A stretch of DNA of 64,000 nucleotides, taken from IMG/VR virus record IMGVR_UViG_3300022746_000001, one strand, 5' to 3'. Made by a program: the position numbers and the translations under genes. This document shows positions 19,058 to 62,193 of the stretch, one piece after another. How positions within the stretch are numbered: the first letter of the stretch is position 1; each line of letters opens with the position of its first letter. The stretch comes from a virus (Duplodnaviria; Heunggongvirae; Uroviricota; Caudoviricetes). Below the pieces are notes generated by a model. It had not been told where the DNA came from. It did no database searches and was given only the letters and a program-made list of their open reading frames with translations.

Positions 19058-19504
19058 CTACCAAGCTCCGAAGTCGTCGGTCAAGCCTTCAATCTTCACG
19101 TCAGCAGGTTTGTTTGGATCAGGTGGTGGCGGTGGTGTGTAAATGTTGTCCACCTCAAAGAACTTGCCATCATCATCGCGATCACAGTCTGTCCAAGTGA
19201 GTAAGAAATCCTCATAGCAGTCGATGGCGTTTTGTTCGTGCGCGAACGTCTGTCCGCTCATGTTGGGGTCTACGCGCAATTGACCGTCGCTGCCATAGTT
19301 CCACACGTTGATGGAGAACAGCGGCCAAGTGTCGCGAAAGGATGATTTCTCAATGCTCGACAACTTGCCTAACCAAACGAGCCGAGCCTTTACGACGCCA
19401 TTGTCGAAGTTGCGAATCAGGCGGTAGTCCTCGTCTTCGCTTTTCAACTTCCACTCAGCGAGTGACATTGGACGACCTGTGCGGTCATAGTAAAAAGATG
19501 CCAT
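19058..19504 (-). CDS. hypothetical protein
   Basis: AGGAAGG RBS; ends DDFGAW. Confidence 0.55.
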   Translation of the reverse strand: MASFYYDRTGRPMSLAEWKLKSEDEDYRLIRNFDNGVVKARLVWLGKLSSIEKSSFRDTWPLFSINVWNYGSDGQLRVDPNMSGQTFAHEQNAIDCYEDFLLTWTDCDRDDDGKFFEVDNIYTPPPPPDPNKPADVKIEGLTDDFGAW

Positions 19505-19515
19505 ACATTTCCTTC

Positions 19516-20004
19516 CTAAACTTCAAGCTCCGGCATCCGGTATTCAAACCACGCCGGCACATCACGGTTAGTCCATTTACAAATCTCTGCCTTAGAACCA
19601 ATGTAGTAGCGACGATAGGCCAACACTGGGTCAATGTCGCGGTACTGATCTGGCATCGCCTGGGCAAATGGTGTCTGTCCAACGACAGGTATTCCTCGTG
19701 GCAGAGCATGTAGCTCGCCGAAGACGTAATACTCCGTCTTGTGTTTGCGGCCGTAGCGCGCCGTGTATTCGCAGCACATGGCCTTCGCATGTGCCAGAAG
19801 CCATGCGTAATTGTGCGCAGAGTTTCCAGCCCAGAGAGTGCATGGATGATGCTCATGGGTGGAGCGATACGTAGCGAGGCTGCCATATCGGTGATGAACG
19901 GTTGCCATGATCTGCGCAGACTCCACGATCATCTTGACGACATGGCGGTCGCAAAGCATTTCAGCGGCTGTCGCTGGATTGGAGTCAAGAACGAAGATGT
20001 TCAC
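19516..20004 (-). CDS. hypothetical His/Cys/Trp-rich protein
   Basis: GTG start overlapping upstream stop; no family recognised. Confidence 0.5.
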   Translation of the reverse strand: MNIFVLDSNPATAAEMLCDRHVVKMIVESAQIMATVHHRYGSLATYRSTHEHHPCTLWAGNSAHNYAWLLAHAKAMCCEYTARYGRKHKTEYYVFGELHALPRGIPVVGQTPFAQAMPDQYRDIDPVLAYRRYYIGSKAEICKWTNRDVPAWFEYRMPELEV

Positions 20005-20162
20005 AGGGAGACCTCCGAAAGCACCTCGTCGCCAAGCGTGAGTTGTACCGTATGGCGATCAACGTAAAGTGGCCCATCCATGCCGCCTGTGTACTCGCTT
20101 GTGGTCTTCACATCGAGGCGCAAGTTCTCGCGCAGGAAAGCAATCAGTTCTTCTTGGCTCAT
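20001..20162 (-). CDS. small hypothetical protein (53 aa)
   Basis: GGAG RBS 5 nt before ATG; ATGA and GTGA overlaps with neighbours. Confidence 0.35.
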   Translation of the reverse strand: MSQEELIAFLRENLRLDVKTTSEYTGGMDGPLYVDRHTVQLTLGDEVLSEVSL

Positions 20163-20524
20163 AACGACTCCACAATGTCGAAGCAGGAGTGGTAGATCAA
20201 GAAGCAGTTAATCTCGGGGTTGTCCACCTCGACGACATAGGTCTTCTCTGGAGCCGTCATGGATTGGGTGTCCACGAATGTAATTTTCATTCGTAGGCTT
20301 TTCATGTGCGCCAGACCGAGCGTCTTGCCAAAGCAAATTTCTAAGCCTTCGTCATTGAGGACAACAGTGTCTCCAACTTTAGGCACTGGATGTGACTTCA
20401 TTACTTCTTCCTTCAAATCGTTTGCGGCTGGCTGAATATCGCAGACATGAATCCACTGAAAGCCAGGCATGAAGCCGCGCTCGTCTAATGACAGAAGGCG
20501 CTTGCCGCAGGTGTTGCAATTCAC
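20159..20524 (-). CDS. hypothetical zinc-finger protein
   Basis: N-terminal CNTCG. Confidence 0.5.
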   Translation of the reverse strand: MNCNTCGKRLLSLDERGFMPGFQWIHVCDIQPAANDLKEEVMKSHPVPKVGDTVVLNDEGLEICFGKTLGLAHMKSLRMKITFVDTQSMTAPEKTYVVEVDNPEINCFLIYHSCFDIVESL

Positions 20525-20715
20525 TGCACAATCTCCGCGCTGCCCACCACGTTGCCGTTGGTGTCGCGTAATTGTGGAAAGCTGACATAGCCTTGAGCCA
20601 GCATCTTCACGACAGGCGTCAAGATGCGAGAGACTTCGGCTGCGGCGTCGGACTTGTCGCCAACAGCACCGAAAAAGGCGTCGTTGTCGCAGTCAATCTC
20701 CAGAATGAATTTCAT
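20521..20715 (-). CDS. hypothetical protein
   Basis: internal ATG (MKFILEID) with GGAG RBS. Confidence 0.4.
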   Translation of the reverse strand: MKFILEIDCDNDAFFGAVGDKSDAAAEVSRILTPVVKMLAQGYVSFPQLRDTNGNVVGSAEIVQ

Positions 20716-20912
20716 AGAAAAGCTCCATGTGTTTAGTTGCTGATGACTTAGTGTAGAAACCAGCAACAGGGGTAGCAATACATGCCTACGAAGTCTCCAA
20801 GCACAAAGCAATGCGCCATTAAAGTGACACTATGGTGCTTAGTGCATCTTTAATGGCGCATTACAAGCGCGTTCTAAGCGCTTGCCTGATGTGTCATTAC
20901 TGACTTATGCGG

Positions 20913-21281
20913 TCAAACGCGAGTGTTGGGGTCTTCTTCGCTTTTCTCTACAGGGAAAGGTTCGCCTGCAAAGATAGCTTTCATGTATGCCTGAATCTCT
21001 TCTTCGGTAGGCTCTTCCGCTTGCACATCAATCAAGCGAACACCGCAGGCTTTGCCAGTGATGCCAGCAAAGAAAGAGACCGCGAAGAACAGGACGACCT
21101 TCACGATAGCGTCCCAAAGCGGTCTCACAAACGTGTAAAACAGGATGAAAGGCAGATGAAAGATTGGCGAGAATACGCCGACCACGAGCGACTGCAAGTA
21201 GTTGGGGTTACGCTGAACGCGCAGATTGGCTGGTTCTGGCAACCAAGTGGGGGCGAATGTGTACTTGAATCGTTTAATCAT
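20913..21281 (-). CDS. membrane protein
   Basis: AAGGAG RBS; hydrophobic helices. Confidence 0.5.
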   Translation of the reverse strand: MIKRFKYTFAPTWLPEPANLRVQRNPNYLQSLVVGVFSPIFHLPFILFYTFVRPLWDAIVKVVLFFAVSFFAGITGKACGVRLIDVQAEEPTEEEIQAYMKAIFAGEPFPVEKSEEDPNTRV

Positions 21282-21284
21282 GGG

Positions 21285-21851
21285 TTACTCCTTTGTAGTG
21301 TGGTGATCGACAGTCGTGTGTCCACGACCATCCATGTAAGCTCTAACATCGTCCAATGAGTACGGTGTCAGGTTGTTCGTGTCGCAGCCCACGTCCATGA
21401 GCCGCATACCTTCGTAGGGATGTTTTAACGTGCCATGCGAGTGACCGTGAAGCATCCAAGAGCCGTAGTGCGCTTTGTTCCAAGTCAGCATCGGGTAGTG
21501 GCACATCACGATGCGGTCGTAACCTCCATCGCTGCGCTGCACCTTCAACTCCTTCAGGTCTTGAATAGAAGCGAAGTGTTGCGTCACCAGTGCCGACTGC
21601 CTGGCTTTGTCGTGGTTGCCCTTGATCCAGTGTTTGACGCCATTCAGACGCTTGAGGATGTTGTGGGTGTACTCGGCGTTCTTGAAAGACAGATCGCCCA
21701 AGTGAAAGATGGTGTCTTTCTTGCCTACTACCTCATTCCAACGCTCGACAATGGCTTCGTCAACTTCAGCGGCAGTCTCAAAGCCACGATTGACGTGCTT
21801 GATGATGCCTTCATGACCGAAGTGAGTGTCGGACGTAAAAAAGTAATTCAT
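21285..21851 (-). CDS. calcineurin-like metallophosphoesterase
   Basis: SDTHFGH, GDL, GNHD, GHSHG motifs; GGGGGAG RBS. Confidence 0.7.
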   Translation of the reverse strand: MNYFFTSDTHFGHEGIIKHVNRGFETAAEVDEAIVERWNEVVGKKDTIFHLGDLSFKNAEYTHNILKRLNGVKHWIKGNHDKARQSALVTQHFASIQDLKELKVQRSDGGYDRIVMCHYPMLTWNKAHYGSWMLHGHSHGTLKHPYEGMRLMDVGCDTNNLTPYSLDDVRAYMDGRGHTTVDHHTTKE

Positions 21852-22213
21852 TAGAAACTCCCCCAATTGCCTTCGTACTTTTGTCTCATTACTGCGCGAG
21901 TGAGCGGATAGCTCTCCACAACAACAGGTTCTCCACCGTCGTCCACGTCAACCTTGGCAACCTTCTCAAGTCGAAATGGAACGCAGCGAATGCCTGTATC
22001 AGTTCCAAACTCTTCCGCATCGAGGTGGTAGCGAAAGCCTAAGAAGTCGAACGTGAGGTGGTGATAGAAGCCATTGGTGCTATGACTGACGTAATCAACC
22101 GTGTTCCGCATTACCGCATCGGCAATCGTTTCGATGGCGGCGATGTGCAGACTATTGGCGCATTCGATTACGGACAGATCGTCCGGCCACTCAAGCGACT
22201 GGAGGCGAATCAT
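21851..22213 (-). CDS. hypothetical protein
   Basis: TAATG overlaps at both ends; ends GNWGSF. Confidence 0.45.
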   Translation of the reverse strand: MIRLQSLEWPDDLSVIECANSLHIAAIETIADAVMRNTVDYVSHSTNGFYHHLTFDFLGFRYHLDAEEFGTDTGIRCVPFRLEKVAKVDVDDGGEPVVVESYPLTRAVMRQKYEGNWGSF

Positions 22214-27766: not shown

Positions 27767-27978
27767 TCGGGTGGCATCCTCACTTGAACGTCCAACGTCA
27801 AGGTTTTAGCGAAGTCGTCATCCACATAGCCTTTAAGCAGTGCGCAACGAGTGCAGCGTGGATACCCTCCCCTGCCTGGAGTTGTGTACCAGTTGCCTGG
27901 GCGATCGTCAGAGCAGCTTGTTCGTCCATGTTCAGGCACCTGTTTCAGCAGCTCATGAAAGAAGGCTTTATTCACCAT
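27763..27978 (-). CDS. hypothetical protein
   Basis: GGAGG RBS. Confidence 0.45.
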   Translation of the reverse strand: MVNKAFFHELLKQVPEHGRTSCSDDRPGNWYTTPGRGGYPRCTRCALLKGYVDDDFAKTLTLDVQVRMPPE

Positions 27979-28355
27979 AAGTCCTCCGAGAACAGCTCTG
28001 GGCCTTGATAGCCGCCAGGATTGCGATTGAGCTGTCCGGTCTGCTCGGCGATCAGAAACGCCTGCTTGCGGTTCAAAAACGTGCCGTTCGCATCCAGAAA
28101 GCCTTGAACGTCTGGGCCGTAGACGCCACCGATCATGCGAATCACGTCATGGTGACGGTTCGGCGCCGGCAGCGAGAACACCTTGTTGGCGTACTTGATG
28201 GCGACGTGCGTGATCTTCTGAGGGTTCTCCAGCGCTTCTTGTACTGGGTCTGGCTTCACCTTCTTGCCCCAAATGCGCTCATGACCTTCCTTGAAGGCTT
28301 CTGTAGTCACTTTGGTGGCGATCAGGTCGCCGGTAATATCGTTCTCTGCAATCAT
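27972..28355 (-). CDS. hypothetical protein (possible small HD-domain phosphohydrolase)
   Basis: AAGGAG RBS; H...HHD pattern; ends EDLW. Confidence 0.45.
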   Translation of the reverse strand: MIAENDITGDLIATKVTTEAFKEGHERIWGKKVKPDPVQEALENPQKITHVAIKYANKVFSLPAPNRHHDVIRMIGGVYGPDVQGFLDANGTFLNRKQAFLIAEQTGQLNRNPGGYQGPELFSEDLW

Positions 28356-28734: not shown

Positions 28735-28992
28735 TTACCAAGTTTGAAGGTCTTCCATCACCTCGACGGCTGCCGGCTTGGGTCGTGCTTCGCACAGAGC
28801 TTGAGCCTCACCGATAAGGTGAATGAAGTCCTTGTCGTGGACGAGACCCGAAACAGCCATAAACAAAACGTCAACGCCTGTTGAGAACTGCTGCGGTGTG
28901 ATCTTTTCTTGGGAAACTGCGAGAGTCAGCCAAGTCAATGTCTCAATTGCCTTGCGGTCGATTTCTTCTTGAAGGGTGGGCAACTGAGACAT
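28735..28992 (-). CDS. hypothetical protein
   Basis: GAGGAG RBS; ends LQTW. Confidence 0.45.
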   Translation of the reverse strand: MSQLPTLQEEIDRKAIETLTWLTLAVSQEKITPQQFSTGVDVLFMAVSGLVHDKDFIHLIGEAQALCEARPKPAAVEVMEDLQTW

Positions 28993-33175: not shown

Positions 33176-33263
33176 TGGCGGAAGCGGTGAGATTCGAACT
33201 CACGGAACCTTGCGGTTCGACTGGGTTCAAGCCAGTTGCCATAGACCACTCGACCACACTTCC
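33176..33263 (-). tRNA. tRNA-Ser (anticodon UGA), CCA encoded
   Basis: long variable arm; anticodon loop CTTGAAC; T-arm GGTTCGAATCTC. Confidence 0.8.
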
Positions 33264-33270
33264 TAAATCT

Positions 33271-33355
33271 TGGTGCCCAGAGTCGGACTCGAACCGACAC
33301 GCCTCGCGGCGACGGCTTCTGAGGCCGTTGCGTCTACCAATTTCACCACCTGGGC
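33271..33355 (-). tRNA. tRNA-Leu (anticodon CAG), CCA encoded
   Basis: anticodon loop CTCAGAA; long variable arm; T-loop GTTCGAGTC. Confidence 0.8.
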
Positions 33356-33356
33356 T

Positions 33357-33432
<76 letters not shown>

Positions 33433-33535
33433 ATCATGAATGAAGGCTTTCGTCCAGCTCGGGATAGGTCGGTAGTTAGCCGTTTCAGTTTCACCCGTCC
33501 CCTGGGAATCGAACCCAGAAGCCTTCATTCATGAT
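33433..33535 (-). other. about 100-nt element with 15-bp terminal inverted repeats containing a tRNA T-arm-like hairpin (tRNA-like fragment / structured RNA / miniature insertion)
   Basis: ATCATGAATGAAGGC ... GCCTTCATTCATGAT flank CTGGGTTCGATTCCCAG (minus strand) and tandem TGAAAC repeats; no complete cloverleaf found. Confidence 0.35.
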
Positions 33536-36937: not shown

Positions 36938-37417
36938 CTACCAAGTGTCCGATTCGGTAGTTGGGGTATCTGGACTGCGCGGCACTTCTGACTCCAGTGG
37001 CGCGCTGTCAGTTGGAATGAGGCTCATGAGTTGCATGTCGTCGGTCTTGATGCGGGTGTAGCTGAATACGCCACCTCGTCTGTATAAGGTTTCGTTCTTA
37101 CAGCGAATTTGGACTTGATCTGTCTGTCCGCAAGAGACGCAATACTGCTTGGTCATGCGCTCCAAGTTCTCTTGCTCGTCAACCTTGATGCTCGAACAGC
37201 CCTCACATTCCGGTACGTCTTTTCGGAGCGTATGAGTGATCTTGAGGCGCGCAGATTCCGGAAACTTGGACTGCATCGCTTCAAGGCTGCTTACTTCGAA
37301 GAAGAACTTCTTGTTGCAAAGGCGATTGGGCGTCACCTCTTCCGTCTCGTACTTAATTGTTTCGTAGTCCACAAGCGCGTTGTAGCGCTGCGACATGCCT
37401 ACAGAATGAAACGCCAT
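36938..37417 (-). CDS. hypothetical zinc-finger protein
   Basis: CEGC...CVSCGQ; ends ESDTW. Confidence 0.5.
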   Translation of the reverse strand: MAFHSVGMSQRYNALVDYETIKYETEEVTPNRLCNKKFFFEVSSLEAMQSKFPESARLKITHTLRKDVPECEGCSSIKVDEQENLERMTKQYCVSCGQTDQVQIRCKNETLYRRGGVFSYTRIKTDDMQLMSLIPTDSAPLESEVPRSPDTPTTESDTW

Positions 37418-37418: not shown

Positions 37419-37979
37419 TCAGGCAGCCGCCTTGAACAGCGCCATCACAGAACGGAACTCGGTGGACTTCAGGCCAGCTTTGATTGCAAAGCAGGCATCT
37501 GCCAAGTGTTCGTTGTCATTGAGGAGTTTGGTTTCACCTTTGACTTTGCGTGTAAGCCATTTGGCTTCAGGAAACTCTTTGACTGCCGCTTCGATCATCT
37601 CCGACTTCTCTGCGGTCTTGTAGCCAGTGGCGGCCAGCTTCACCTCAGAAGGCGTCACTTGAATGATTGGAATTGGGCAAGCAGCCAAGACACCGACGCA
37701 GATGCCATACGACGCCATTGCTCGTGCGCTTTGTGAGCCTACAGGAACTTCAACGAACGCGAAGGCTGCGCTCTTGCACTCTTCCATCATGCCGTCGTAA
37801 AGCAACTTGGCGCGGCGTAGGTCGTCGGAGTTTTTGCGCACCGTCTTTTGCTTCGCCGCATTGTCCTCGGACTCTACAAGTCTCATGCTGTCCACCTTGA
37901 AGGTGAGCGAGTTCGCGTCCAGGGTTGCACTGACGATGCCAAAGTTACGCAGTGATGGGTCGATGCCTATGATTTTCAT
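37419..37979 (-). CDS. RuvC-like Holliday junction resolvase
   Basis: IIGIDPSLRNFGIV (first catalytic Asp), FVEVP, C-terminal acidic residues; RNase H-like fold. Confidence 0.65.
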   Translation of the reverse strand: MKIIGIDPSLRNFGIVSATLDANSLTFKVDSMRLVESEDNAAKQKTVRKNSDDLRRAKLLYDGMMEECKSAAFAFVEVPVGSQSARAMASYGICVGVLAACPIPIIQVTPSEVKLAATGYKTAEKSEMIEAAVKEFPEAKWLTRKVKGETKLLNDNEHLADACFAIKAGLKSTEFRSVMALFKAAA

Positions 37980-38236
37980 TACCAGCTTTCTGTTTCTGTT
38001 GAGGGTTTATCTGTCGTTGGGACAGATACGATTTCAGGGGTCTCTGCGCTTGTTGGCGGTTCGATGTGTATTTGCATCAAGTCTCCTTTGCGGTTGATAA
38101 GCGCGTTCTGGAGCTTGGTGACTTCTGGCACTTCCATGTACGCCTCCACCATTACTCGCACCAAGCCAGGGTTCGTTGAATTGCCTGATGCGAGGTACTC
38201 GTAACTGGCGAGACTGAAGTGACCCTTGATTACCAC
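37979..38236 (-). CDS. hypothetical protein
   Basis: GTG start overlapping upstream TGGTAA; ends TESW. Confidence 0.45.
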   Translation of the reverse strand: MVIKGHFSLASYEYLASGNSTNPGLVRVMVEAYMEVPEVTKLQNALINRKGDLMQIHIEPPTSAETPEIVSVPTTDKPSTETESW

Positions 38237-38676
38237 GAGCCAAACCCCAAGTCTTCGTACTTGTCGTAGCGGTCTTCCAGGGCGGCGCGCTCTGCTTTGT
38301 CTGCAATCTGGCGACGCGCTTCTGCGATGGTGGAGTCAAGACCGGCGGTCGTCTCTTTCAGGAACTCTCTGAATCCCATCAAGCTGCGCTCTGCTTCGTC
38401 TTGCGCCATCTCCATCTCTTTGTAGTCGGCGGTCATGATTGGCTTGAAGACGCAAATCATCTTGCCTCGCTTGCCCATGTAGACGCGCACAGGGCGAAAG
38501 TCTTCAGAGCCAACGTGAGGCGCCTTCGAGTAGCCCTTCTCCTTGAGAACGGTCAGCGTCAAAGGCTCCATCAGCATGAAGGTCTCGTGGGTCGCCTGCA
38601 TTGCTTTGGTGATTGCTTCAACCAGCGGCGCCATCACGTCTTCCGTGATTTGTTCCTTCTGGGTCTTCTCTTCCAT
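38230..38676 (-). CDS. hypothetical protein
   Basis: AGGAG RBS before internal ATG; track N-terminal extension overlaps palindromic motif; ends DLGFGSW. Confidence 0.5.
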   Translation of the reverse strand: MEEKTQKEQITEDVMAPLVEAITKAMQATHETFMLMEPLTLTVLKEKGYSKAPHVGSEDFRPVRVYMGKRGKMICVFKPIMTADYKEMEMAQDEAERSLMGFREFLKETTAGLDSTIAEARRQIADKAERAALEDRYDKYEDLGFGSW

Positions 38677-45914: not shown

Positions 45915-46721
45915 TCACTGAATGTTCCCTACGGCCGCTCGTGAAGCGCGGTCTTTTAGAGAACTAATGTTGTCCTTTTCGGCGAGAACACGGGCTGCAC
46001 CCTTGTATTCTTCGCGTCGGTCGGCACCGAGTTGGATCATCATGTCGCGGCGATCAGCCAGGGACGCCACCAACGACTTGTTGATGTTGGCAATGGTGTC
46101 AGCTTCGATGACGGCGTTCTTGGCTTGCAACCACTTGGGGTTCATCTTCACGGCGTTCTCAACCATCTTCTCAGTGGTCTTCTCGCCTGCTGCCGCCAGG
46201 GACTTACGAGCGTCGTCGTACAGCTTGGCCTCCAATACCTCGAACCGAGCCTTCAAACGAGCATGTTGGGCTTCTGCGTTCGCTGCCTGGGCACCGTAGA
46301 AGGCGCGCAGACCGGACTGTTCGATCATGCAGTTGTCCAGCGTGGCTTCGGTCAGCTTGGTTTCTTTGTTGAACTCCACCACGTCAATTGAATACTTTAG
46401 CTTTGCCGCAGCCGACGATTGTGGAACGTCTGCACTAATAGCTTCATCTTCAGCGGGTGCAGCCATGTCAATCTCTGGCTCTGGCTTTGGTTTCGCAATC
46501 GCTTTAGGCTTTTCGACCTTCACAGGTGCTGGCTCTGGCAGAGGCTCAGGTGCTGGCTCGGGTTCGGGTTCAGCGACAGGCTGTGGTTCGGGTTCGGGTG
46601 TAGGTTCCGCAGCTTTGGCTGGTACAGCAGCTTGCACGGGGAAGCTGGCGTTCTCACGCTCTAGCTCATCCATCAATGCGGCAAGCTCTGCGTCTTCTAC
46701 GGAAATCTCTGGGTTTGACAT
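45915..46721 (-). CDS. hypothetical protein with Pro/Glu-rich linker
   Basis: PEPEPQPVAEPEPEPAPEPLPEP repeat region. Confidence 0.5.
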   Translation of the reverse strand: MSNPEISVEDAELAALMDELERENASFPVQAAVPAKAAEPTPEPEPQPVAEPEPEPAPEPLPEPAPVKVEKPKAIAKPKPEPEIDMAAPAEDEAISADVPQSSAAAKLKYSIDVVEFNKETKLTEATLDNCMIEQSGLRAFYGAQAANAEAQHARLKARFEVLEAKLYDDARKSLAAAGEKTTEKMVENAVKMNPKWLQAKNAVIEADTIANINKSLVASLADRRDMMIQLGADRREEYKGAARVLAEKDNISSLKDRASRAAVGNIQ

Positions 46722-50989: not shown

Positions 50990-51643
50990 TTAGAAATGAT
51001 TTTCCATTGTGGTGTTCTCCAACTTACGCAGCTCGGCTAATGCACTGCGAACTTGCGCCTCTGTGACACCGCCCAACATCACGATGAATTGCCCTACATA
51101 GCGTGGCGATACATGGTTCATGAAGCGGCGCTCATAACCGAGACTTTTGGCGTACTGAATGTGCGCTTCGGCTTTTGCTAACTCTTCCAAGAACTCCTTC
51201 GGTGGCTCAATGACCCACTCCATAATCAAGAACGCCAGAGGTGAAAGTTGTTCACGAATCTGAGCCACGAACTCGCTACAGGCGTAGATTGCTTCAGGTG
51301 TCGCGTTGTCCTTCATCAGCACTTCTTCGAGATTGAAGTCTTCGCCGTTGGACTTGTTGTTCATCTCCTCGATGCTGACAACGCCATAGCGAAGACGCTC
51401 GTCAATCATCTTTTGCGCCCAAGAGTTAATCTTGTTGAAGGCAGCCATGTAGTAGTAAGTCGTGAATCGGTTGCCCAAACTCGCGTCGAACCCCTCGTAT
51501 GCCTTCAGGAAGACGAGAGACATTTCTTGGAACACATCGTCATAGTCCAAACCAATGCCTGCCGCCTGAAGTCGAGCGTAGCCCTTCTTCGAGACGGCGT
51601 GGACAAGACCTTTGTTCTCCTTGTAGAACTGGTCTACGTTCAT
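50990..51643 (-). CDS. sigma-70 family (ECF-like) RNA polymerase sigma factor
   Basis: region 2 DDVFQEMSLVFLKAYEGFDASLGNRFTTYYYMAAFNKI; C-terminal HTH VMLGGVTEAQVRSAL. Confidence 0.65.
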   Translation of the reverse strand: MNVDQFYKENKGLVHAVSKKGYARLQAAGIGLDYDDVFQEMSLVFLKAYEGFDASLGNRFTTYYYMAAFNKINSWAQKMIDERLRYGVVSIEEMNNKSNGEDFNLEEVLMKDNATPEAIYACSEFVAQIREQLSPLAFLIMEWVIEPPKEFLEELAKAEAHIQYAKSLGYERRFMNHVSPRYVGQFIVMLGGVTEAQVRSALAELRKLENTTMENHF

Positions 51644-51645: not shown

Positions 51646-52836
51646 TTAGCTTCCGAAGATGCGTTGAGCCAAGCCGTCTACAACTTCGCGGTCGATCTTG
51701 GACAACTTGTTGATGAACGACAGAGTCAAGCCCTGACGGAACGAACCGCGCTTGACGCCAATCTTGGCTGCGTAGATCAAAGTACGAGGCGAAATCACAT
51801 CGCTGATCTTTGCGCCGTCATACGCATCACGGACGAGACCTGCGAAGTCCACCAGCTTGTCGGCATCTTCTTTGGTCAAGCCAACTTGATTCTGGAGAAT
51901 CTGCGACTCGGAAGCCTTCTTCATGTACTGCTTGTGGATCACCATGCCGAAGCGGTCATAGTTCGCAGAGTTCTGAAGGTTTGTGCCTTGATACAGACCC
52001 GTCTCGTCGCCCGAACCGTTGGTGTTGCCAGTAGCGCAGAAGCGGAAGTTCGGGTGAGGCTTGATAAGACGATTCTCAGCATCGGCTTCTTTAATCATCA
52101 GTGACTTACCTTCGAGGACAGCCTGATAGACCGATAAGACAGAAGGCAACGCGAAGTCGTATTCGTCAGCGACATACATCCAACCATTTTGCATAGCGAG
52201 TGGAAGTGGGCCAAGTTCGAAGACGGTTTGACCGCCCTTCACCGTCCACTGCCCAACGATGTGTGATTCTTCCGTGTTGACTGTGTGCTGGACGCGAATC
52301 GTGGGTCGGTTAGTACGCGCGCCGATTTGTTCATACAGCTCAGTCTTGCCAGAACCTTTGTGACCCCACACGTAAGACGGAATGTTCAACTCAAGTGCCA
52401 GGATGACGTTTTTCAATTCGTCAATGTCGTACACGTAGTTGTCCGAAGGTGTCGGAACCATGTCGCTGAACTCGCCAGCGGCAAGTACGGAAATTGGAAT
52501 GGCTTCGCCCTTAGAACTCAATGCAGACTTGAGTTTGCCGAGATTGAAGGTTTCGTGAAATGCTTTTTTCATCACACCATTTCGGGGAGCAAGAGCGGCC
52601 ACATTCGTGCCAGCCATCTCCACTTTGGTGGTTGCTGCCGCTGCGGGTGCTGCGGTAGGATTTGTCGCGGCATGTTCCGCGATCTTCTTCTGCGCCAGTT
52701 GAGACAGCAGAGGTGCGTCTGGATAATCCATCGCATACTGCTCAACAGTCATTTCTGGGTGTGCATCCTTCAAGTGCAACTTGATGGCGTGAACATGCGC
52801 TCCACAGATGGCACATGCGATCTTTTCGTCTGACAT
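51646..52836 (-). CDS. cobS: CobS-like AAA+ ATPase (MoxR family)
   Basis: Walker A VWGHKGSGKTE; paired with downstream vWA protein as in phage CobS/CobT pairs. Confidence 0.7.
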   Translation of the reverse strand: MSDEKIACAICGAHVHAIKLHLKDAHPEMTVEQYAMDYPDAPLLSQLAQKKIAEHAATNPTAAPAAAATTKVEMAGTNVAALAPRNGVMKKAFHETFNLGKLKSALSSKGEAIPISVLAAGEFSDMVPTPSDNYVYDIDELKNVILALELNIPSYVWGHKGSGKTELYEQIGARTNRPTIRVQHTVNTEESHIVGQWTVKGGQTVFELGPLPLAMQNGWMYVADEYDFALPSVLSVYQAVLEGKSLMIKEADAENRLIKPHPNFRFCATGNTNGSGDETGLYQGTNLQNSANYDRFGMVIHKQYMKKASESQILQNQVGLTKEDADKLVDFAGLVRDAYDGAKISDVISPRTLIYAAKIGVKRGSFRQGLTLSFINKLSKIDREVVDGLAQRIFGS

Positions 52837-52953: not shown

Positions 52954-55089
52954 TTACGCTGCAAGCAAAAGCTGGCGCAACTCTTTAATCACAACGCTTG
53001 GCAACTGCTCCACGTTGTTCAACACAAGACTCTTTGGATAGAACTCGCGAACGGCCTCCGATTGAATGCCGATGCCGATGATCTTTACGCCTGAGTTGGC
53101 AATGTCACGCACCTTCTCGCGCAAGTGGCGACGCAGGTCGGCAGAGTTGCCGGCAGCCGCTGGATAACCGTCCGACAGCACCAGCATGATCTTGCCCTCT
53201 TCGCGACGCGCCATTAGACGACGAGCGGCCACCTCGATAGATTCGCCATCGACGTTACTGCGAAGGATGTTTGTGTTGGGAAGCCAACCGAAGCGCTCCT
53301 TCACGTCTGTAGTCATGCGTTCCTCGTAACCCTTGAGAATCGGCATGTAGATGCCTTCCATACGAGAGAAGCCACGACCCATCTTGCTCTGCTGCTCACG
53401 CATATCCTTCTGAGCGCCGCCAATGTCCTTCGTGGTGAAACAGATTACTTCATTCTTAATGCTCAAACGCTCCAACACGGCTGCCAGCGCATACGCAGCC
53501 TGACAAGCGGTGTGAACCTTCTCACCAGCCATCGAGCCAGAGGCGTCAACGACGAGTTCGACTGCCACATCCTTGCTGGTTGATTCCTGCTTGCGGCTAA
53601 AGACACGGTTATCGTTCACTGCCAGGCGAGACAGGTTTGGTGCGTGGAGACGACCGGAGCGGTGTCCGTGTGATCGGGTGGCGAGAGAACGTGCAGCGAT
53701 GGCGCGCTCAAGGTCTTTCTGCAATGGCGCGACCATGTGTTCCGTCTTCTCTATCAGCTTCTTGGTCATGGCTGCGTTGTAGCCGGAGCCGATTGGTAGC
53801 TTCTCCACAACGTCATAATCTTTCGTGAAGATCAGGTAATCGGCATTCTCCGCAACCGCGCTGGTGGCGTCGCTGATGACTTTGCTCATAGCTTCGTCGT
53901 AGCCGTTAGCACTCTCCTTGTCGAGCGCTTCCCATACTGGCGCAGAGTCGCCAAGCTCAACATCTTCTTCGTCTGAGGCGGTCGCACTTGGGGACGATTC
54001 GTCATCTACAGGGTCGGGTTCAGAAGGCTCCTCTTCCTCTTGCTCTGCGATCTCAGGCTCTGGCTCCGATTCGTCTTCTGATTCTTCAGGTGCTGGCTCT
54101 GGCTCTGATTCGTCTTCAGATTCTTTTTCTTCTGGCTCTTTCTCAGGTTCAGACTTCTCAGGCTTGGACTCTTTTTCTTTCTCGTCTTCTTTCTCGCCAG
54201 GCGCCTCTTCTTCTTTTTCTTCTTTCTCTTTTTCGCCCTTGCCCTTGCCTTTACCCTTTGAAGGAGTCTTTTCTTCTTCGCTTTTTTCTTCTGGCTCTTT
54301 CTCAGGTTTGGTCTTGCCGCTGCCAGAAGACTTGTCTTTTTTGCCAGAGGTTGTCTTGGTGCCGATACCGCCCGACTTGCTAGAACCACCCTTCTCGCTC
54401 TTCTCCTCACCCTTGTCGCCACCTGACGAGCCTTCGCTCATGCGCTTACCAATCTCGGCAGCCAGCTCAAAACATTCTTCGGTAGAGGCGGCAGCTTCGA
54501 TCTTCGGGGCCAAGTCTTTAATGCGTTCATACACAGGGGCGACCGTTGTCCAGTGGTCTTTCATGAACTCTTGGAAGACCATCTGACCCGACATAGCGCG
54601 AATCATTGGAACCATTAGCGATTCGATAACGCCGTTCACGTCACCGGCAGCAGCTTTCTCTTGCAAGCGTGGCTTGACGAACTTGTCCAGGTAGAACTGT
54701 CCAGTAACAGACAGGTTGTGCGCAGAGCCTTGAAAGCGCTTTGCCATGCACTTCTCGATGCGAGGGTCTTCAAGTGCATTAAGCAAGTAACCGATGCGCT
54801 TACCTTGCGCCATCGCCTTGCTCATGACGGTGAACTCGGTAAAGAGGATGTGAGCAACCTCGTGATCCAAGAAGCCTTGAATGGCGTTGCACAGGTCTTC
54901 ACCAGCGTTGTCTGGCAGATATGGCAAGTTGACAACCAGCGGCACACCGCGATGGTCGGCACGAACGTATGCGCTAACACCCTGTTGGGTGACTTTGATG
55001 CCCTTACCGGAGAGCATCTGTGTGATCTTCACGACGGACTCGCGAAGGATAAAAACTCGATCATTCTTCATTGTCGCTCCTTTAGTCAT
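52954..55089 (-). CDS. cobT: CobT-like von Willebrand factor A domain protein with long acidic/Lys-rich low-complexity region
   Basis: vWA MIDAS DASGSMAG; long low-complexity stretch KGKGKGEKEKEEKEEEAPGEKEDEKEKESKPEKSEPEKEPEEKESEDESEPEPAPEE. Confidence 0.7.
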   Translation of the reverse strand: MTKGATMKNDRVFILRESVVKITQMLSGKGIKVTQQGVSAYVRADHRGVPLVVNLPYLPDNAGEDLCNAIQGFLDHEVAHILFTEFTVMSKAMAQGKRIGYLLNALEDPRIEKCMAKRFQGSAHNLSVTGQFYLDKFVKPRLQEKAAAGDVNGVIESLMVPMIRAMSGQMVFQEFMKDHWTTVAPVYERIKDLAPKIEAAASTEECFELAAEIGKRMSEGSSGGDKGEEKSEKGGSSKSGGIGTKTTSGKKDKSSGSGKTKPEKEPEEKSEEEKTPSKGKGKGKGEKEKEEKEEEAPGEKEDEKEKESKPEKSEPEKEPEEKESEDESEPEPAPEESEDESEPEPEIAEQEEEEPSEPDPVDDESSPSATASDEEDVELGDSAPVWEALDKESANGYDEAMSKVISDATSAVAENADYLIFTKDYDVVEKLPIGSGYNAAMTKKLIEKTEHMVAPLQKDLERAIAARSLATRSHGHRSGRLHAPNLSRLAVNDNRVFSRKQESTSKDVAVELVVDASGSMAGEKVHTACQAAYALAAVLERLSIKNEVICFTTKDIGGAQKDMREQQSKMGRGFSRMEGIYMPILKGYEERMTTDVKERFGWLPNTNILRSNVDGESIEVAARRLMARREEGKIMLVLSDGYPAAAGNSADLRRHLREKVRDIANSGVKIIGIGIQSEAVREFYPKSLVLNNVEQLPSVVIKELRQLLLAA

Positions 55090-55569: not shown

Positions 55570-56016
55570 ATGGCTATCACTAAAGCTGTGCGAGTCACTC
55601 CACCGACCGCAAGTAAGCCGAAGAATGTTGCCGAATACATATCGTGGCAGATCAACCTGTGTGGCAAGAAGCAAATCGAAATCGCTGAAGAAGTCGGCTT
55701 TGATAAGCCGAACGTCATCACAATGATTAAGCAGGGAAAGACCAAGGTTCCGATCAACAAGATTGGAAAAATGGCGAAAGCACTCAATGTTGACCCCATC
55801 TTCTTCTTGAGGATGTGCATCAATGAGTACATGCCAGACATGATGGAAGCCATTACCGCCATCATAAACCAACCCGTTTTTACGGCCAATGAAATTGATT
55901 TCATTGAGGAAATGAGAGCTTCGAAGATAGTTAACCCGAAGCTGGAGACCAAAGATGATCGCGCCAGATTCAGGGAGTTCTTGAAGACACTGAAAAGCGA
56001 CAATGGCGGAAACTGA
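55570..56016 (+). CDS. XRE-family helix-turn-helix transcriptional regulator (repressor-like)
   Basis: HTH QIEIAEEVGFDKPNVITMIKQGKT; GGGAGAAAG RBS; AT-rich divergent promoter region upstream. Confidence 0.7.
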   Translation: MAITKAVRVTPPTASKPKNVAEYISWQINLCGKKQIEIAEEVGFDKPNVITMIKQGKTKVPINKIGKMAKALNVDPIFFLRMCINEYMPDMMEAITAIINQPVFTANEIDFIEEMRASKIVNPKLETKDDRARFREFLKTLKSDNGGN

Positions 56017-56122: not shown

Positions 56123-56380
56123 ATGATGATGCGTTTTATAAAGATTGCCGAAGTCGAACAGATTTCAGGATTCAAGAAATCCAAGATTTATTCCATGATC
56201 CAACAGGGCGAGTTTCCTCAACCCGTCAAGATCGGTCGCTCGTCTAATTGGCTACTCTCGGAGCTTGAGGGATGGATAGCCTTGCGCGCCATGCAGCGAA
56301 CCACTCCCACGGTTGAATGGAGTAGTTACAGTTCCCAGAGCGCAGGTCATCCAGATAGTCAGCCCACCCCTGCACCATGA
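56123..56380 (+). CDS. alpA: AlpA-family excisionase-like DNA-binding protein
   Basis: MRFIKIAEVEQISGFKKSKIYSMIQQGEFPQPVKIGRSSNWLLSELEGWI matches AlpA pattern; 3' end overlaps integrase by about 137 nt. Confidence 0.65.
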   Translation: MMMRFIKIAEVEQISGFKKSKIYSMIQQGEFPQPVKIGRSSNWLLSELEGWIALRAMQRTTPTVEWSSYSSQSAGHPDSQPTPAP

Positions 56381-57518
56381 TGCAGCGCTCTTGCCAATAC
56401 TCAGCGCGGTTGTAGGCGCGTTCAACCTTACTCTCCAGCTCGTGCGCTAATTGCTTTTCGACAACTTTGGAATCGAAGCCGCCCTCTTCCAACAAGGTCT
56501 TGGCAGTAGTTCTAAAGCCGTGTGTGGAGTGAATTTCTTTGTAGCCCAGGCGATGCAAGTTCTTCATGAAGGTGGTGTCGCCATAGACGCCACCTCGCGG
56601 ACTTGGGAATACAAGACCTTCCGAGCCTGTGACTGTTTTCAGGTTTTCAAGCATTTCAACTGCTTGCTTGGACAGAGGGCACAGAAAGTCTTTTCTTGCT
56701 TTCATCTGATGCGCCGGTAATGTCCAAGTCGCATTCGGAAGATCAAACTGTTCCCATGATGCGTATCGTAAGTTTTGCGGACGAACGAAGACCAACGCAT
56801 TCAGGCGCAACGCAATCACAGGCAATGTCTGCTCGTCGTTGTCCAGCTTTCGCAATAACTCCCCAAGTTGTTCAGGGACAATGAGTGCAGGAAAGTGACG
56901 CTCTTTATGCTGCGCAAATCCATCGCGCTTTACTCTTGCAATTGGATTGCCTGGAAGTTCGCCGCGATCATAAGCGGCTTCAAATGCTCGATTTAGGAGT
57001 GATCGTACTCGGGTTAGCTTGTAATTCGCACCGCGCTTTTCTACTCTTTCAAGCAAGCTCCGAATGTCATCAGGTGTGATACCGATCGCCTCGCGTTTAC
57101 CGATGAACGGTAGAACGTCTCGCTTCATGGCAATCTCATAGTCGTCGTAGTGAGTGTCGCTCCAATCTTTCTTGTTGCGCTCCATCCACCCGTACAAAAG
57201 TTCCGAGACCGTTTGGTGCTTGGTCACGATCCTCTCGACACGACGAGCCTCGACAGGGTCTTTCCCCAACTGTACTTTTTCCCTAGCTTGCTGTGCCAGG
57301 GTACGAGCCGTACTTAGCGAGACTGCGGGATAGGTTCCGATGGAATAGGTCTTACGTTTTCCATACAGGGAGTAGTTCAAAGTCCAGCTTGCAGAGCCGT
57401 TGGGTCGAACGACTAGGTACAGGTTTTCGCCGTCCGCTATCTTCGTTACTCCACCCTTGTCTCTTGCTTGCTTGAGCCTTGATTCTAAAGACTTTTGGGA
57501 CAACTCATGTAACGCCAT
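56244..57518 (-). CDS. int: tyrosine integrase (P4-type, N-terminal arm-binding domain)
   Basis: GGAGG RBS before ATG 57518; catalytic-region HGFRTT...HEL...RAYNRAEY. Confidence 0.8.
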   Translation of the reverse strand: MALHELSQKSLESRLKQARDKGGVTKIADGENLYLVVRPNGSASWTLNYSLYGKRKTYSIGTYPAVSLSTARTLAQQAREKVQLGKDPVEARRVERIVTKHQTVSELLYGWMERNKKDWSDTHYDDYEIAMKRDVLPFIGKREAIGITPDDIRSLLERVEKRGANYKLTRVRSLLNRAFEAAYDRGELPGNPIARVKRDGFAQHKERHFPALIVPEQLGELLRKLDNDEQTLPVIALRLNALVFVRPQNLRYASWEQFDLPNATWTLPAHQMKARKDFLCPLSKQAVEMLENLKTVTGSEGLVFPSPRGGVYGDTTFMKNLHRLGYKEIHSTHGFRTTAKTLLEEGGFDSKVVEKQLAHELESKVERAYNRAEYWQERCIMVQGWADYLDDLRSGNCNYSIQPWEWFAAWRARLSIPQAPRVAN

Positions 57519-57519
57519 G

Positions 57520-57830
57520 TGGTAACGCCTCCAAACAAATGTGGTAACGGTCTTGAGTGTAGTGACCGATTTCTTAGTTACCACCGGCGTTACCACTTTA
57601 TTTTCTGGAAGTCAGGGGATTGGCATGGAGAGTGGTGGAAAAGAAAAACCCCCAGAACCTAGTGGTGGTGGGGGTTTCGCTTTTGCTGAACACTCTGGCG
57701 GAGGTCAGCGGACTACCAGTTTCAAGCAGGTGCCAAATATTTGGCGGAGACGGAGGGATTCGTACTTCTAGTCTCTATGAGGCTTTCGGGAGGATTCCAA
57801 ATTCGTTACCACCGCCGTTACCACTTGAGT
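57520..57830. repeat. candidate att region with direct GTTACCAC arm-type repeats
   Basis: GTTACCACCGGCGTTACCACTT and GTTACCACCGCCGTTACCACTTGAGTG plus further GTTACCAC/GTGGTAAC copies beside integrase start. Confidence 0.5.
57640..57676 (-). terminator. rho-independent terminator
   Basis: CCCCCA...TGGGGG stem then TTTTTCTTTTCC on minus strand. Confidence 0.55.
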
Positions 57831-60453: not shown

Positions 60454-60767
60454 GCAGCGCTCTTTTCTTTCTCGTCAGCCAGCGTCTTGTCGATAGACTG
60501 ATACAGGCCGTCGATATGAGGAACCAACTCCTCCGCTGCGGTCATGAACATGGCTTTAGCGTCTTCGGCTGTCTTGCCGCTTTCGTATGCGCCGGCAGCC
60601 ACTAGTTGAATCAAGCAAGTCATACAGCCAGAAACAACGGCGGGAAACTCGATGCCGTCGTCTTGCAGCTTGTCGGCGGTAATACCGAATTGCTTGATGG
60701 CGTCCATGATCTGACCCTGCATGTACGCAGTGATGATTACAGGCTGTTCGTTTTGTTGGTCACTCAT
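60450..60767 (-). CDS. hypothetical protein
   Basis: ORF track. Confidence 0.45.
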   Translation of the reverse strand: MSDQQNEQPVIITAYMQGQIMDAIKQFGITADKLQDDGIEFPAVVSGCMTCLIQLVAAGAYESGKTAEDAKAMFMTAAEELVPHIDGLYQSIDKTLADEKEKSAA

Positions 60768-60770
60768 GAC

Positions 60771-61382
60771 TTACTCCTTTGGGTGTGAATTTTTCATGTG
60801 CAGCTTGGCGATTTCCAAGAGGCTCATGCCAGGTTTTTGAACTACGGGTTCGGGTGTCTCGACAGGTTCGGGTGTCGCAGCTTGCGCTTGCGTTTCCTTG
60901 ATTGCCGCATTGATTGCTGCGGCGTAACCATCTTCTTCATTAGAAGTTGATTGTATTGATTTCGCTGCTATTTTCGGTTGGGGAGTTGAAGCTGCCGTAG
61001 GCGATGTTGTCCCGTGCGCTGGCTTCTTCACAGGTGGGCGTTGTGCTGCGTAGGCTTCGCGTTGTGCTTGCGCTTGTTTGTCCAGTTCTTCAAGCATGAG
61101 CCTGCGATCAACGTAGTACATGGCTTTGCCAGCAAGCTGCTCTTGCTCACGCATCGGCATTGCGGGGCATGACTTACCCTTGATAGCGGTTTCACATACC
61201 GTATAGGCAGACAAGCTGCGGTCACGCTCGAATGCCGCGATCTTATTCAGACACACTGCGTAGCCTGCGCGAAAGCCAGCTTCTTTGCAGCCCACCGTGT
61301 AGGTGTTGGTTCCACTCATTGATTGCGCTGCGGGATAGATGGGTTGTCTCGCCAGTACCGCTTCGTTGATTGCATCACTCAT
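60771..61382 (-). CDS. hypothetical protein
   Basis: AGGAGAAAGT RBS before internal ATG. Confidence 0.5.
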   Translation of the reverse strand: MSDAINEAVLARQPIYPAAQSMSGTNTYTVGCKEAGFRAGYAVCLNKIAAFERDRSLSAYTVCETAIKGKSCPAMPMREQEQLAGKAMYYVDRRLMLEELDKQAQAQREAYAAQRPPVKKPAHGTTSPTAASTPQPKIAAKSIQSTSNEEDGYAAAINAAIKETQAQAATPEPVETPEPVVQKPGMSLLEIAKLHMKNSHPKE

Positions 61383-61390
61383 ACTTTCTC

Positions 61391-61666
61391 CTACCATGTG
61401 CCCCACTCAGGGCGTTCGATTAAAAACTGTTTTTGGGCCGCGACATTACTCAGCACTGACGTAAGTCTACTGCGCGCATTAAGGAGTTTGGTTGCTTCCT
61501 GCGAAGTCTCCAGCATCTTGAGTGCAGCTTTCCCAATTGCTTGGCTCTCTTCAGTGTTTTTCACTAGAGCCTCCGCGACTTCATCAATCCAGACGCTAGT
61601 TAGTTCTGTGCCCACGATCTTGTGAAACGTGGCTAATTGATCGGCGGTAAAGCTAATGGAAGGCAT
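61391..61666 (-). CDS. hypothetical protein
   Basis: TAATG overlap with upstream gene; ends PEWGTW. Confidence 0.45.
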   Translation of the reverse strand: MPSISFTADQLATFHKIVGTELTSVWIDEVAEALVKNTEESQAIGKAALKMLETSQEATKLLNARSRLTSVLSNVAAQKQFLIERPEWGTW

Positions 61667-62121
61667 TACCAGCTACCCCACTCTTCGCCGCGCTCCGGTT
61701 CAGGTTCTGGCTCCTCGCTGATAATGTCCGCTTCTGTTACGTCATCTGCCGGTAGCAGAATTTCAAACAGACCTAGCGCCTCCCAAATTTCGTCAGTTGA
61801 GCCGTAGTGGTTCTGAATTGCGCGTCCTAGATCGCCGTTCTCTACCGACAGCTCAGATACGCCAAGACCATGCAGCCCATACGACGATGATGTAATGTTG
61901 TAGCCACGATTGACTTTGCTTGAGACTGTCCGATCTGCCACCTGCTGCGCTTTTCTCAGAACGGGAAAACCCTCAACGGACTTTTGTCCGACTGAACCAT
62001 TTGCGCCCCACCGTTTAACCACAACATACTTGCCTTGTTCAGAGTTCCAAAACTCCACTAACTCGTAGAATTTTGTACCTCCCTCGTGAGCCAAGAATTT
62101 TGACTCGATATGAATTTTCAT
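61666..62121 (-). CDS. WGR-domain-like protein (tentative)
   Basis: GAGAGGAGAG RBS; KFYELVEFWNSEQGKYVVVKRWGANGSVGQ; acidic tail ending EEWGSW. Confidence 0.45.
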   Translation of the reverse strand: MKIHIESKFLAHEGGTKFYELVEFWNSEQGKYVVVKRWGANGSVGQKSVEGFPVLRKAQQVADRTVSSKVNRGYNITSSSYGLHGLGVSELSVENGDLGRAIQNHYGSTDEIWEALGLFEILLPADDVTEADIISEEPEPEPERGEEWGSW

Positions 62122-62193
62122 AGCTCTCCTCTCAAACTGATATTTCAATTCAAACTATAGAGTTCAAATCGCGGGGTAAACAGACTGGCTCAC

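Follow-up and report, generated by a model that had tools for sequence, protein, structure and literature searches.

A recurrent aromatic C-terminal tail on unrelated early proteins of an SSU5/Nickievirus-like phage: probable docking peptides for a shared partner

Why should about a dozen small, otherwise unrelated proteins of one phage end in nearly the same few residues? The question is raised by a stretch of 64,000 nucleotides (hereafter the window, meaning the whole of the DNA that was analysed) from a member of the Caudoviricetes, IMG/VR record IMGVR_UViG_3300022746_000001, in which an initial annotation had pointed to five dissimilar proteins closing in an aromatic residue, glycine, a small residue and a second aromatic residue, and to further endings in tryptophan, seven of which it listed. 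The five tails translate as described (DDFGAW at 19058-19504, DLGFGSW at 38230-38676, PEWGTW at 61391-61666, EEWGSW at 61666-62121 and GNWGSF at 21851-22213), and the seven other endings (DSWW, DDAW, TESW, SDTW, LQTW, EDLW and DEVTW) are all present. The observation is thus confirmed; that these are docking tails is very likely, and the overall interpretation developed below is partly supported.

The window covers the early/DNA-metabolism module of a tailed phage of ~110 kb that is SSU5/Nickievirus-like, its closest cultured relatives, at ~37–44% protein identity, being the Pseudomonas Nickievirus phages (hairong, nickie), Rhizobium phage RHEph10 and the Salmonella phage-plasmid SSU5. A megablast search with 12 kb of the window against cultured phages gave no match, and a metagenomic contig of 112,395 bp encodes proteins that are 100% identical to some in the window. 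Four lineages are compared throughout, namely the window phage, hairong, SSU5 and RHEph10, along with L-numbered loci, of which L016 is RHEph10 and others are from IMG/VR or ~105-kb metagenomic relatives; RHph_Y2_11 was rejected as independent evidence, being near-identical to RHEph10. The gene set comes from our own codon-usage-based greedy caller, which yields 101–102 genes, a few of the small open reading frames (ORFs) being uncertain; C-termini are unaffected by the choice of start codon. The twelve tail-bearing proteins are as follows, with lengths in amino acids (aa).

38230..38676, minus strand: Rad50-adjacent accessory protein, 148 aa (alternative GTG start at 38721); tail YEDLGFGSW, its last six codons at 38233-38250
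61666..62121, minus strand: WGR-domain protein of 151 aa (TTG at 62148 is an alternative start), its gene directly following that for the primase; tail EEPEPEPERGEEWGSW
19058..19504, minus strand: DDFGAW protein, 148 aa, function unassigned; folded core, PPPPPDP linker and tail EGLTDDFGAW, with ~280 nucleotides downstream that hold no gene
61391..61666, minus strand: 91-aa protein; tail LIERPEWGTW
21851..22213, minus strand: 120-aa protein; tail YEGNWGSF, a terminal-Phe variant
16064..16480, minus strand: 138-aa protein; tail AYDSWW
16809..17195, minus strand: 128-aa protein; tail NDKPVAAYGDDAW, with ~330 nucleotides downstream that hold no gene
36938..37417, minus strand: 159-aa Cys-rich (zinc-ribbon-like) protein between the RuvC-like and ribonucleotide reductase genes; tail SPDTPTTESDTW, class II
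37979..38236, minus strand: 85-aa protein; tail TTDKPSTETESW, class II
28735..28992, minus strand: 85-aa protein; tail MEDLQTW
27972..28355, minus strand: 127-aa protein, a candidate member; tail LFSEDLW, with Trp behind acidic residues; phrog_839 (unknown function)
3538..4053, plus strand, opposite to the others: 171-aa protein; tail SRDVPATDEVTW, class II

The recurrence is far greater than composition would produce. Tryptophan makes up 1.33% of residues but closes 11 of the 101–102 proteins (binomial P=1.3e-7), and none of 20,000 per-protein shuffles reaches 11 (mean 1.6, maximum 8). A null model at the nucleotide level, in which TGG stands before 2.1% of 4,297 non-gene stop codons in six frames, leaves the terminal Trp excess at P=1e-5. 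The tetrapeptide itself, written as [FWY]G[STAG][WF], is found at five C-termini and at only two internal places among 18,225 positions, the expected terminal count being 0.008 (P=2e-13), and again not one of 20,000 shuffles gives five terminal copies. Relatives behave in the same way when pooled, with 24 of 297 called genes ending in Trp (P=4.5e-11). The 11 residues that precede a terminal Trp are acidic in character, Asp and Glu making up 26% (15% in the others) and Lys and Arg 6% (12% in the others), with Pro, Gly, Ser and Thr enriched and aliphatic residues depleted.

Conservation tells the same story at the level of the protein, since the terminal aromatic residue is kept in the orthologs of ten of the twelve. 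The Rad50-adjacent protein, whose gene always lies directly after the Rad50-like gene in a synteny that is kept in all relatives, ends in GFG[STE]W in 22/23 homologs (48–93% identity). A profile search against 1.84 billion representatives recovered 395 clusters for this family, and among the best 150 of the 395, which are mutually no more than 50% identical, 139 end in Ar-[GA]-x-Ar (Ar being an aromatic residue), 9 have one further residue (Ar-[GA]-x-Ar-x) and the other 2 show neither form. At BLAST sensitivity the family is essentially metagenomic only, a tblastn search with one member against phages having given no match. It is probably one of the ancestral carriers of the motif. The one close homolog without a terminal Trp, P0013, reads GFGSC followed by 13 residues (EKENHHENQNHRA), which looks like a TGG-to-TGY change plus stop loss, or a sequencing error. 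In another relative (L001, 4028-6461) the Rad50-like protein itself ends in SPSSTW and the adjoining accessory protein in FGSF plus six residues (FGSFYVMEFA); a transfer of the tail from one subunit to the other is conceivable there, as are chance and a misassembly.

The protein encoded directly after the primase gene is probably the second ancestral carrier. It matches the WGR family, a DNA-binding domain type (Pfam PF05406, 35.3 bits against a gathering cutoff of 22, E=1.3e-8); its homologs carry PF05406 as well, and gp034 of RHEph10 is annotated as WGR. The ending EEPxPEPERG[ED][ES]W[GA]SW is found in 14/14 homologs spanning 38–100% identity, and an ortholog at 32% identity in L024 ends in ADWGSW; the L024 contig is binned to a metagenome-assembled genome (MAG) of the Betaproteobacteria, which is weak evidence of host, a first scan of isolates and MAGs having found none. 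When conservation is expressed as the majority fraction per alignment column and the last columns are compared with linker and body, the WGR family gives 0.95 for the last 12 columns and 0.98 for the last 4, against 0.58 for the body and 0.49 for the linker, and the Rad50-adjacent family gives 0.92 for the last 4, against 0.64 and 0.55. In both families, then, the tail is conserved above the body and the linker that precedes it is the least conserved part of the protein. The DDFGAW family shows this less clearly, with 0.75 for its last 4 columns against 0.79 for its conserved poly-Pro linker.

The remaining families are smaller. All 15/15 homologs of the DDFGAW protein end in AW after an invariant PPPPPDP linker. 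Both orthologs (2/2) of the 61391 protein keep the tail, as RPEWGTW (L013) and RPLWGSW (L014), the DNA beneath showing synonymous substitutions and changes of stop codon, and a 52-aa ORF of hairong likewise ends in PEWGTW. The Phe variant at 21851 is matched by TWGSF (L012) and DWGSF (L009), again 2/2. YDSWW closes 3/3 orthologs of the 16064 protein at ~60% identity, TCA, TCC and TCG as well as TAA and TGA varying beneath it, and the 16809 protein ends in Trp in 3/3 orthologs (GSGAW, YDSAW, YGGSW) while the residues before it drift. A second type of tail, which we call class II, has the form D-x-P-x-T...[DE]-x-W and closes the 36938, 3538 and 37979 proteins, among which we find no likeness outside the tail. 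The 36938 family is fast-evolving and the tail is its best-conserved segment: 5/5 positional analogs have endings of the [RP]-D-x-P-x-T-…-[DE]-x-W type (PDAPTTAQGDAW, SPDTPMTAADEAW, RDVPQTTEEAW, ADIPESASGDAW and KDVPATACDSW). The single ortholog of the 37979 protein (1/1; L006/L007, 40% identity) ends in NDTPTTSTESW, and the tail of the 3538 protein is 53% identical over 17 aa to that of an unrelated L001 protein (SRDVPQTTEEAW). For the 28735 protein, 3/5 homologs end in Trp (AGDW, SGAW, PAVW) with the tail otherwise diverged, and the two that do not are longer and more distant; for the 27972 protein, the ortholog search recovered no full-length ortholog.

Could these endings be a by-product of the way in which the genes are packed? 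The initial annotation had itself cautioned that part of the pattern reflects stop-start junctions, and a purely nucleotide-level account would hold that TGG before a stop codon is favoured by overlaps (ATGGTGA, GTGGTAA, TGGTAATG) or by translational coupling, the encoded peptide having no function. The caution is correct in part: in 4/11 W-ending genes (3538, 16064, 27972 and 38230) a candidate ATG or GTG start downstream shares bases with the TGG, two more use TAATG, and several hairong tails close in GCA TGA, which contains an ATGA overlap. Once the four overlapped genes are dropped, however, 7 of 97 proteins still end in Trp (P=3e-4), and four other genes with the tail are followed by 9–330 nucleotides of non-coding DNA, some of them by 77–330. 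Synonymous change runs freely through the DNA that encodes the tails (CCT/CCG/CCA, GGC/GGT/GGG, TCG/TCA/TCC/AGC), and the peptide, including the residues that precede the Trp, is unchanged under all three stop codons and ahead of unrelated downstream sequence. Since synonymous codons, stop codons and junctions all vary beneath tails that are kept, selection acts on the protein. In addition, RHEph10 has Phe (TTC/TTT) instead of Trp, and SSU5 and RHEph10 share the compact overlapping layout, yet have a terminal Trp in only 3/122 and 1/146 proteins. The signal thus survives a change of junction, the tails are conserved in orthologs, and junction bias does not explain the whole of the enrichment.

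If the tails are under selection, the next question is whether their bearers are simply relatives of one another. An all-against-all BLASTP comparison of the twelve cores with the tails removed gave no match below E=0.6, the only known domain among them is WGR, and no tail protein matches a family of SSBs (proteins that bind single-stranded DNA) in Pfam or PHROGs. AlphaFold2 (AF2) was run with family alignments on two of the twelve. The Rad50-adjacent protein has a core with a predicted local distance difference test (pLDDT) score >90 and falls below 50 over residues 143-148, and the DDFGAW protein has a core at ~90 and falls below 50 over residues 120-148; neither core has a significant structural neighbour. 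The tails therefore have the usual attributes of a short linear motif (SLiM): they lie in a disordered segment (in the two of twelve that were modelled), they are conserved above the linker (in the Rad50-adjacent and WGR families), and they recur on unrelated proteins. Nor do the copies within a genome look like recent duplicates. They differ in codons, such that Arg in the RHEph10 tails is AGA, CGC or CGG and the WATW of SSU5 is written both TGG GCG ACC TGG and TGG GCT ACG TGG. Gene conversion and a mobile mini-cassette were considered as sources of the likeness and rejected on this codon usage, which implies that the likeness is maintained by selection and not by recent copying.

The most informative result is that the tail takes a different form in each lineage. 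In hairong, Trp is enriched at the penultimate and not at the last position (13/157 proteins, P=3e-7), in the pattern [FY]-G-x-W-[AS]; the tails include EFGGWA (after Rad50), IGSWS, YGEWA, YGKWA, FGRWS, FGKWA, YGKWA, CGLWS, YGAWE and DLGGWS, the last on the ortholog of the DDFGAW protein of the window. In SSU5, WATW closes both the post-primase and the post-Rad50 proteins, and a third protein ends in AWDW. In RHEph10, F-G-[RM]-F stands on five unrelated proteins, including the WGR protein (NPRFGMF) and gp068 (NPNFGRF), which has a marginal profile match to the Rad50-adjacent family; hairong_066 and SSU5_076 are positional analogs only of the Rad50-adjacent protein. Strict agreement on Trp or Phe within a genome was also considered and was rejected on L022, so the argument from co-variation rests on hairong, SSU5 and RHEph10 only.

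Acidic-aromatic C-terminal tails on the small subunits of ribonucleotide reductases are a known, separate docking system, and those found here are therefore best kept apart from the motif. They close the class I ribonucleotide reductase beta proteins of hairong (YEDKALEW, 71793-72839) and RHEph10 (DTADDEF), and the RHEph10 glutaredoxin ends in SSGDDDF, the RHEph10 genes being at L016 24656-25618 and 27318-27566.

What, then, would the tails do? C-terminal position, disorder, an acidic linker, unrelated folds, and uniformity within a genome combined with change between lineages are together the signature expected of a SLiM that is read by a shared receptor. We consider it highly probable that the tails are functional and have a shared partner of some kind, and we put a little better than an even chance on their being a docking motif read by one receptor encoded by the phage itself. 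In this model the motif would be [FWY]-G-[STA]-[WF]-COOH, with [acidic/small]-x-W-COOH as a looser form, and would stand where an acidic or Pro-rich disordered linker ends, frequently with a D-x-P-x-T element 8–10 residues upstream. The terminal aromatic side chain, probably along with the carboxylate, would insert into a pocket on the receptor, and about a dozen unrelated small early/DNA-metabolism proteins may thereby be tethered to one place. The initial annotation had likened the tails to that of SSB and proposed docking on a common partner, a proposal that now has indirect support from conservation at the protein level, predicted disorder, acidic and Pro-rich linkers, unrelated cores and coordinated change by lineage; the specific partners that it named (SSB, clamp, polymerase and host RNA polymerase) are still guesses. 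From these observations we infer the existence of a single receptor, its possible identity and its mode of binding.

The receptor would most likely be a conserved part of the phage's own replication-recombination machinery. This preference stems from the linkage of the two oldest carriers to the Rad50 and primase genes and from the resemblance of the characterisable carriers to nucleic-acid binders. The genes of that machinery that matter most here are the following.

38767-40752, minus strand: Rad50/SbcC-like ATPase (phrog_77, E=1e-128), directly upstream of the gene for the FGSW (Rad50-adjacent) protein
40713-41768: Mre11/SbcD
44999-45808, minus strand: T4 gp32-like SSB (Pfam gp32, E=7e-19), conserved in all four lineages
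45915..46721, minus strand: 268-aa protein of unassigned function, a candidate receptor, between the polymerase and SSB genes in all four lineages
46806-50261: DnaE-type polymerase

The window also encodes RecA, a 5'-3' exonuclease, an ATP-dependent DNA ligase, primase, part of DnaB, a class II ribonucleotide reductase, an RNA ligase, an integrase, CobS/CobT-like AAA+/VWA proteins and a sigma-like protein. Of the proteins in the window, sixteen are conserved across the four lineages, the gp32-like SSB, DnaE, DnaB, RecA and the 268-aa protein among them, and these are candidate receptors by conservation. The most plausible would be the gp32-like SSB on single-stranded DNA, the DnaE-type polymerase, the DnaB helicase and the 268-aa protein beside the polymerase, and for any one of them taken by name the probability is low. 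In the 268-aa protein an acidic N-terminus is followed by a long PEPEP-rich linker and then by a C-terminal region of ~140 aa that is conserved, its homologs being hairong_057, SSU5_056 and RHEph10 gp049. An attempt to identify it as a clamp or other hub gave no result: it has no significant Pfam match, its PHROGs matches are of unknown function only, and its PDB matches are confined to the low-complexity PEPEP-rich region and are uninformative. The gp32-like SSB has no aromatic tail and ends in ELDDLLSDLS. Its own C-terminus is acidic and Leu-rich in all lineages (DDLDDLL-x-[DE]-L-[DS]; also at L016 12903-13844, L017 7761-8786, L003 14881-15720 and L022 1064-1894) and is probably a second, separate docking peptide.

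A bolder version of the same idea, on which we would not rely but which seems conceivable, is that of an address-label system, in which a dedicated phage receptor would read Ar-G-x-Ar-COOH on ~10% of the proteome in order to build or regulate a replication-recombination factory, receptor and tails co-evolving between lineages. Its candidate receptors are the 268-aa protein beside the polymerase and the phage CobS/CobT MoxR-VWA pair. As a separate observation on that pair, a sigma-70 region-2-like protein is encoded directly downstream of the CobS/CobT-like MoxR AAA+/VWA genes (50990-51643, 51646-52836 and 52954-55089 for the three), and RHEph10 has the same order of CobT, CobS and sigma factor.

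Several points weigh against a single phage receptor. That the tails fall into two sub-classes may point to a pair of receptors or of sub-sites, and the characterisable carriers, resembling nucleic-acid binders as they do, are also compatible with a role in cis. The receptor itself is putative, its candidates having been chosen by their conservation across the four lineages. Coordination is imperfect, in that the L022 Rad50-adjacent protein ends in FGTF and the neighbouring class II tail in DSW, and the window itself mixes Trp and Phe endings (with one Phe-ending member). The looser endings LQTW, EDLW and DEVTW have weaker or no ortholog support, and the gene calls are our own.

Several known systems resemble this one, each to a limited extent. 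The bacterial SSB tip (DDDIPF) likewise joins an acidic run to a hydrophobic-small-aromatic-COOH end after a Pro/Gly-rich disordered linker. The topology is inverted, however: there the hub carries the tail and its clients have the pockets, and here many clients carry the tail and a single receptor is proposed. The consensus, D-D-D-I-P-F as opposed to Ar-G-[STA]-[WF] or [DE]-x-W, has only the acidic-then-aromatic character in common, and the tip belongs to SSB itself, whereas the gp32-like SSB of this phage lacks the tail.

Closer in some respects are gp2.5 and gp4 of phage T7, unrelated replication proteins with an acidic tail and a terminal Phe that docks on T7 DNA polymerase. The acidic tail of gp2.5 interacts with other proteins of replication and influences how DNA is bound (PMC10359462). 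As here, unrelated proteins of one phage carry an acidic tail with a terminal aromatic residue; T7 has two carriers against about twelve, and the present motif has a conserved Gly, Trp instead of Phe, and a receptor that is so far putative. In T4 and RB69, gp43, gp33 and gp55 dock C-terminal hydrophobic/aromatic peptides in one clamp pocket, so that many unrelated proteins again share a short peptide of this kind at the extreme C-terminus (the T4 replication system is reviewed in PMC3012046). Neither the Gln-Leu core of QL[SD]LF nor the PIP box Qxx[LIM]xx[FY][FY] occurs in any of the tails described here, and neither a clamp nor a clamp loader was found among the scanned proteins of the window (64 of ~112 kb) or the precomputed Pfam matches in the relatives' loci, several conserved proteins being unannotated.

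McdB proteins have an invariant Trp near the C-terminus, all α-McdB ending in V(I)WPD, and a role in carboxysome recruitment has been speculated for it (PMC8359340). The likeness lies in an invariant terminal or near-terminal Trp on very divergent proteins for which docking is proposed. McdB, though, is disordered throughout and pairs with the ParA-type McdA, whereas the two modelled cores here are confidently folded and the neighbours are Rad50, primase, RuvC-like and endonuclease V-like genes, with no ParA. Among eukaryotic systems, the basic cleft of RPA70N is an SSB-associated hub that binds acidic-aromatic peptides of many DNA-damage proteins. The viral FGDF, a short linear motif of the F-G-x-F type, docks on a cellular hub, the NTF2-like domain of G3BP (PMC4450067). 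In both cases the motifs are internal and not at the extreme C-terminus, and the likeness is one of motif style. Full-text searches of the literature on the motif strings, and on phage tails that end in Trp, returned no description, only such analogies. Overall, the tails work like the SSB tip and the T7 and T4 clamp-binding tails but, given their consensus, the tail-less SSB and the lack of a clamp among the proteins and matches searched, belong to none of these systems.

Of the alternatives to a phage-encoded receptor, the one that survives best makes a protein of the host the shared receptor, with the tails hijacking or competing at a host hub by mimicking the SSB tip or by docking on the host clamp, helicase or RNA polymerase. 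This is unlikely, though it has real points in its favour: the tails share the acidic run and hydrophobic-small-aromatic-COOH style of the SSB tip, the variants differ with phage host (Pseudomonas, Salmonella, Rhizobium and possibly Betaproteobacteria), and the carriers are mostly small orphan early proteins, as is typical of host-takeover factors. The pockets of the clamp and those that bind the SSB tip are conserved across Proteobacteria, however, such that marked variation between lineages would not be expected, and the two oldest carriers are tightly linked to the phage's own Rad50 and primase genes.

Rather less probable is action in cis, in which each acidic-aromatic tail would mimic single-stranded DNA and fold onto the nucleic-acid surface of its own protein to autoinhibit or tune it, with no common receptor at all. 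The WGR domain on one carrier, the Cys-rich zinc-ribbon-like character of another and the acidity and terminal aromatic residue of the tails would all fit, as would the T7 gp2.5 precedent, where an acidic tail likewise affects DNA binding (PMC10359462). It is difficult to see, though, why unrelated folds should choose one tetrapeptide, or why they should shift jointly by lineage, about 11 hairong proteins having an extra terminal Ala or Ser and 5 of RHEph10 having FG[RM]F. In the AF2 models the tails are not docked on their own cores, which is weak evidence in the same direction.

We regard as very improbable a third alternative, in which the tail is a C-terminal signal for degradation, timing or remodelling that is read by a host enzyme of the Clp/Lon type or by the phage CobS/CobT MoxR-type AAA+/VWA pair. 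An exposed, disordered, extreme C-terminal element on many early proteins is what such a signal would look like, and the AAA+/VWA pair is conserved in all four lineages, which would still make this a common-partner model. The known bacterial C-degrons (the ssrA tag, with its LAA end) are unlike Ar-G-x-W, however, degradation would be a strange fate for core recombination accessories, and SSU5 and RHEph10 have CobS/CobT, yet few tail proteins.

Encapsidation, in which the tail would be a cargo-loading peptide that docks proteins inside the HK97-type capsid for co-injection, is more remote still: [LI]-G-F-G-S-W is superficially like C-terminal encapsulin cargo peptides of the G-S-L type, and McdB offers a near-terminal invariant Trp with a speculated role in carboxysome recruitment (PMC8359340), but the carriers are encoded in the replication/recombination module beside primase, Rad50 and RuvC-like genes and not among structural genes, and W-tails were not observed in the structural or lysis genes of relatives. 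The weakest reading, that of a junction by-product, is effectively refuted already by the ortholog and lineage comparisons given earlier.

Docking on a shared phage receptor, if it holds, would matter in several ways. With about a dozen orphan early proteins sharing one tail, a single common partner would provide a first functional handle on many of them at once. The tail-and-pocket organisation of the replisome would extend to the large, poorly studied DnaE-polymerase phages and phage-plasmids, and the lineages would offer a clean example from nature of many peptide ligands that co-evolve with a single receptor. Since the lineage forms occur in the cultured phages hairong, SSU5 and RHEph10, the hypothesis is directly testable. 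The motif is usable as an annotation marker as well, being present in 148/150 of the diverse Rad50-adjacent family members (best 150 of 395 clusters).

Some features of the window stand apart from the tails. A tyrosine integrase (56244-57596, minus strand) and a 148-aa ORF on the opposite strand (55570-56016, plus strand) lie within the replication module; the arrangement is also found in relatives, L010 adding an HTH_17 gene there, and it suggests a temperate or phage-plasmid lifestyle. About 1.3 kb at 7336-8701 has no convincing ORF, and the AT skew over 8001-12000 is -0.26, unusually strongly negative in comparison with the remaining window. Finally, an array of eight tRNA genes lies at 33176-34111 on the minus strand (Ser-UGA, Leu-CAG, Trp-CCA, Thr-UGU, Pro-UGG, Glu-UUC, Asn-GUU and Met-CAU); the called ORF at 33270-33443 falls inside it and is spurious. 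Five of the eight tRNAs (Ser, Trp, Thr, Pro and Glu) decode residues that dominate the tails and linkers, which may be coincidence.

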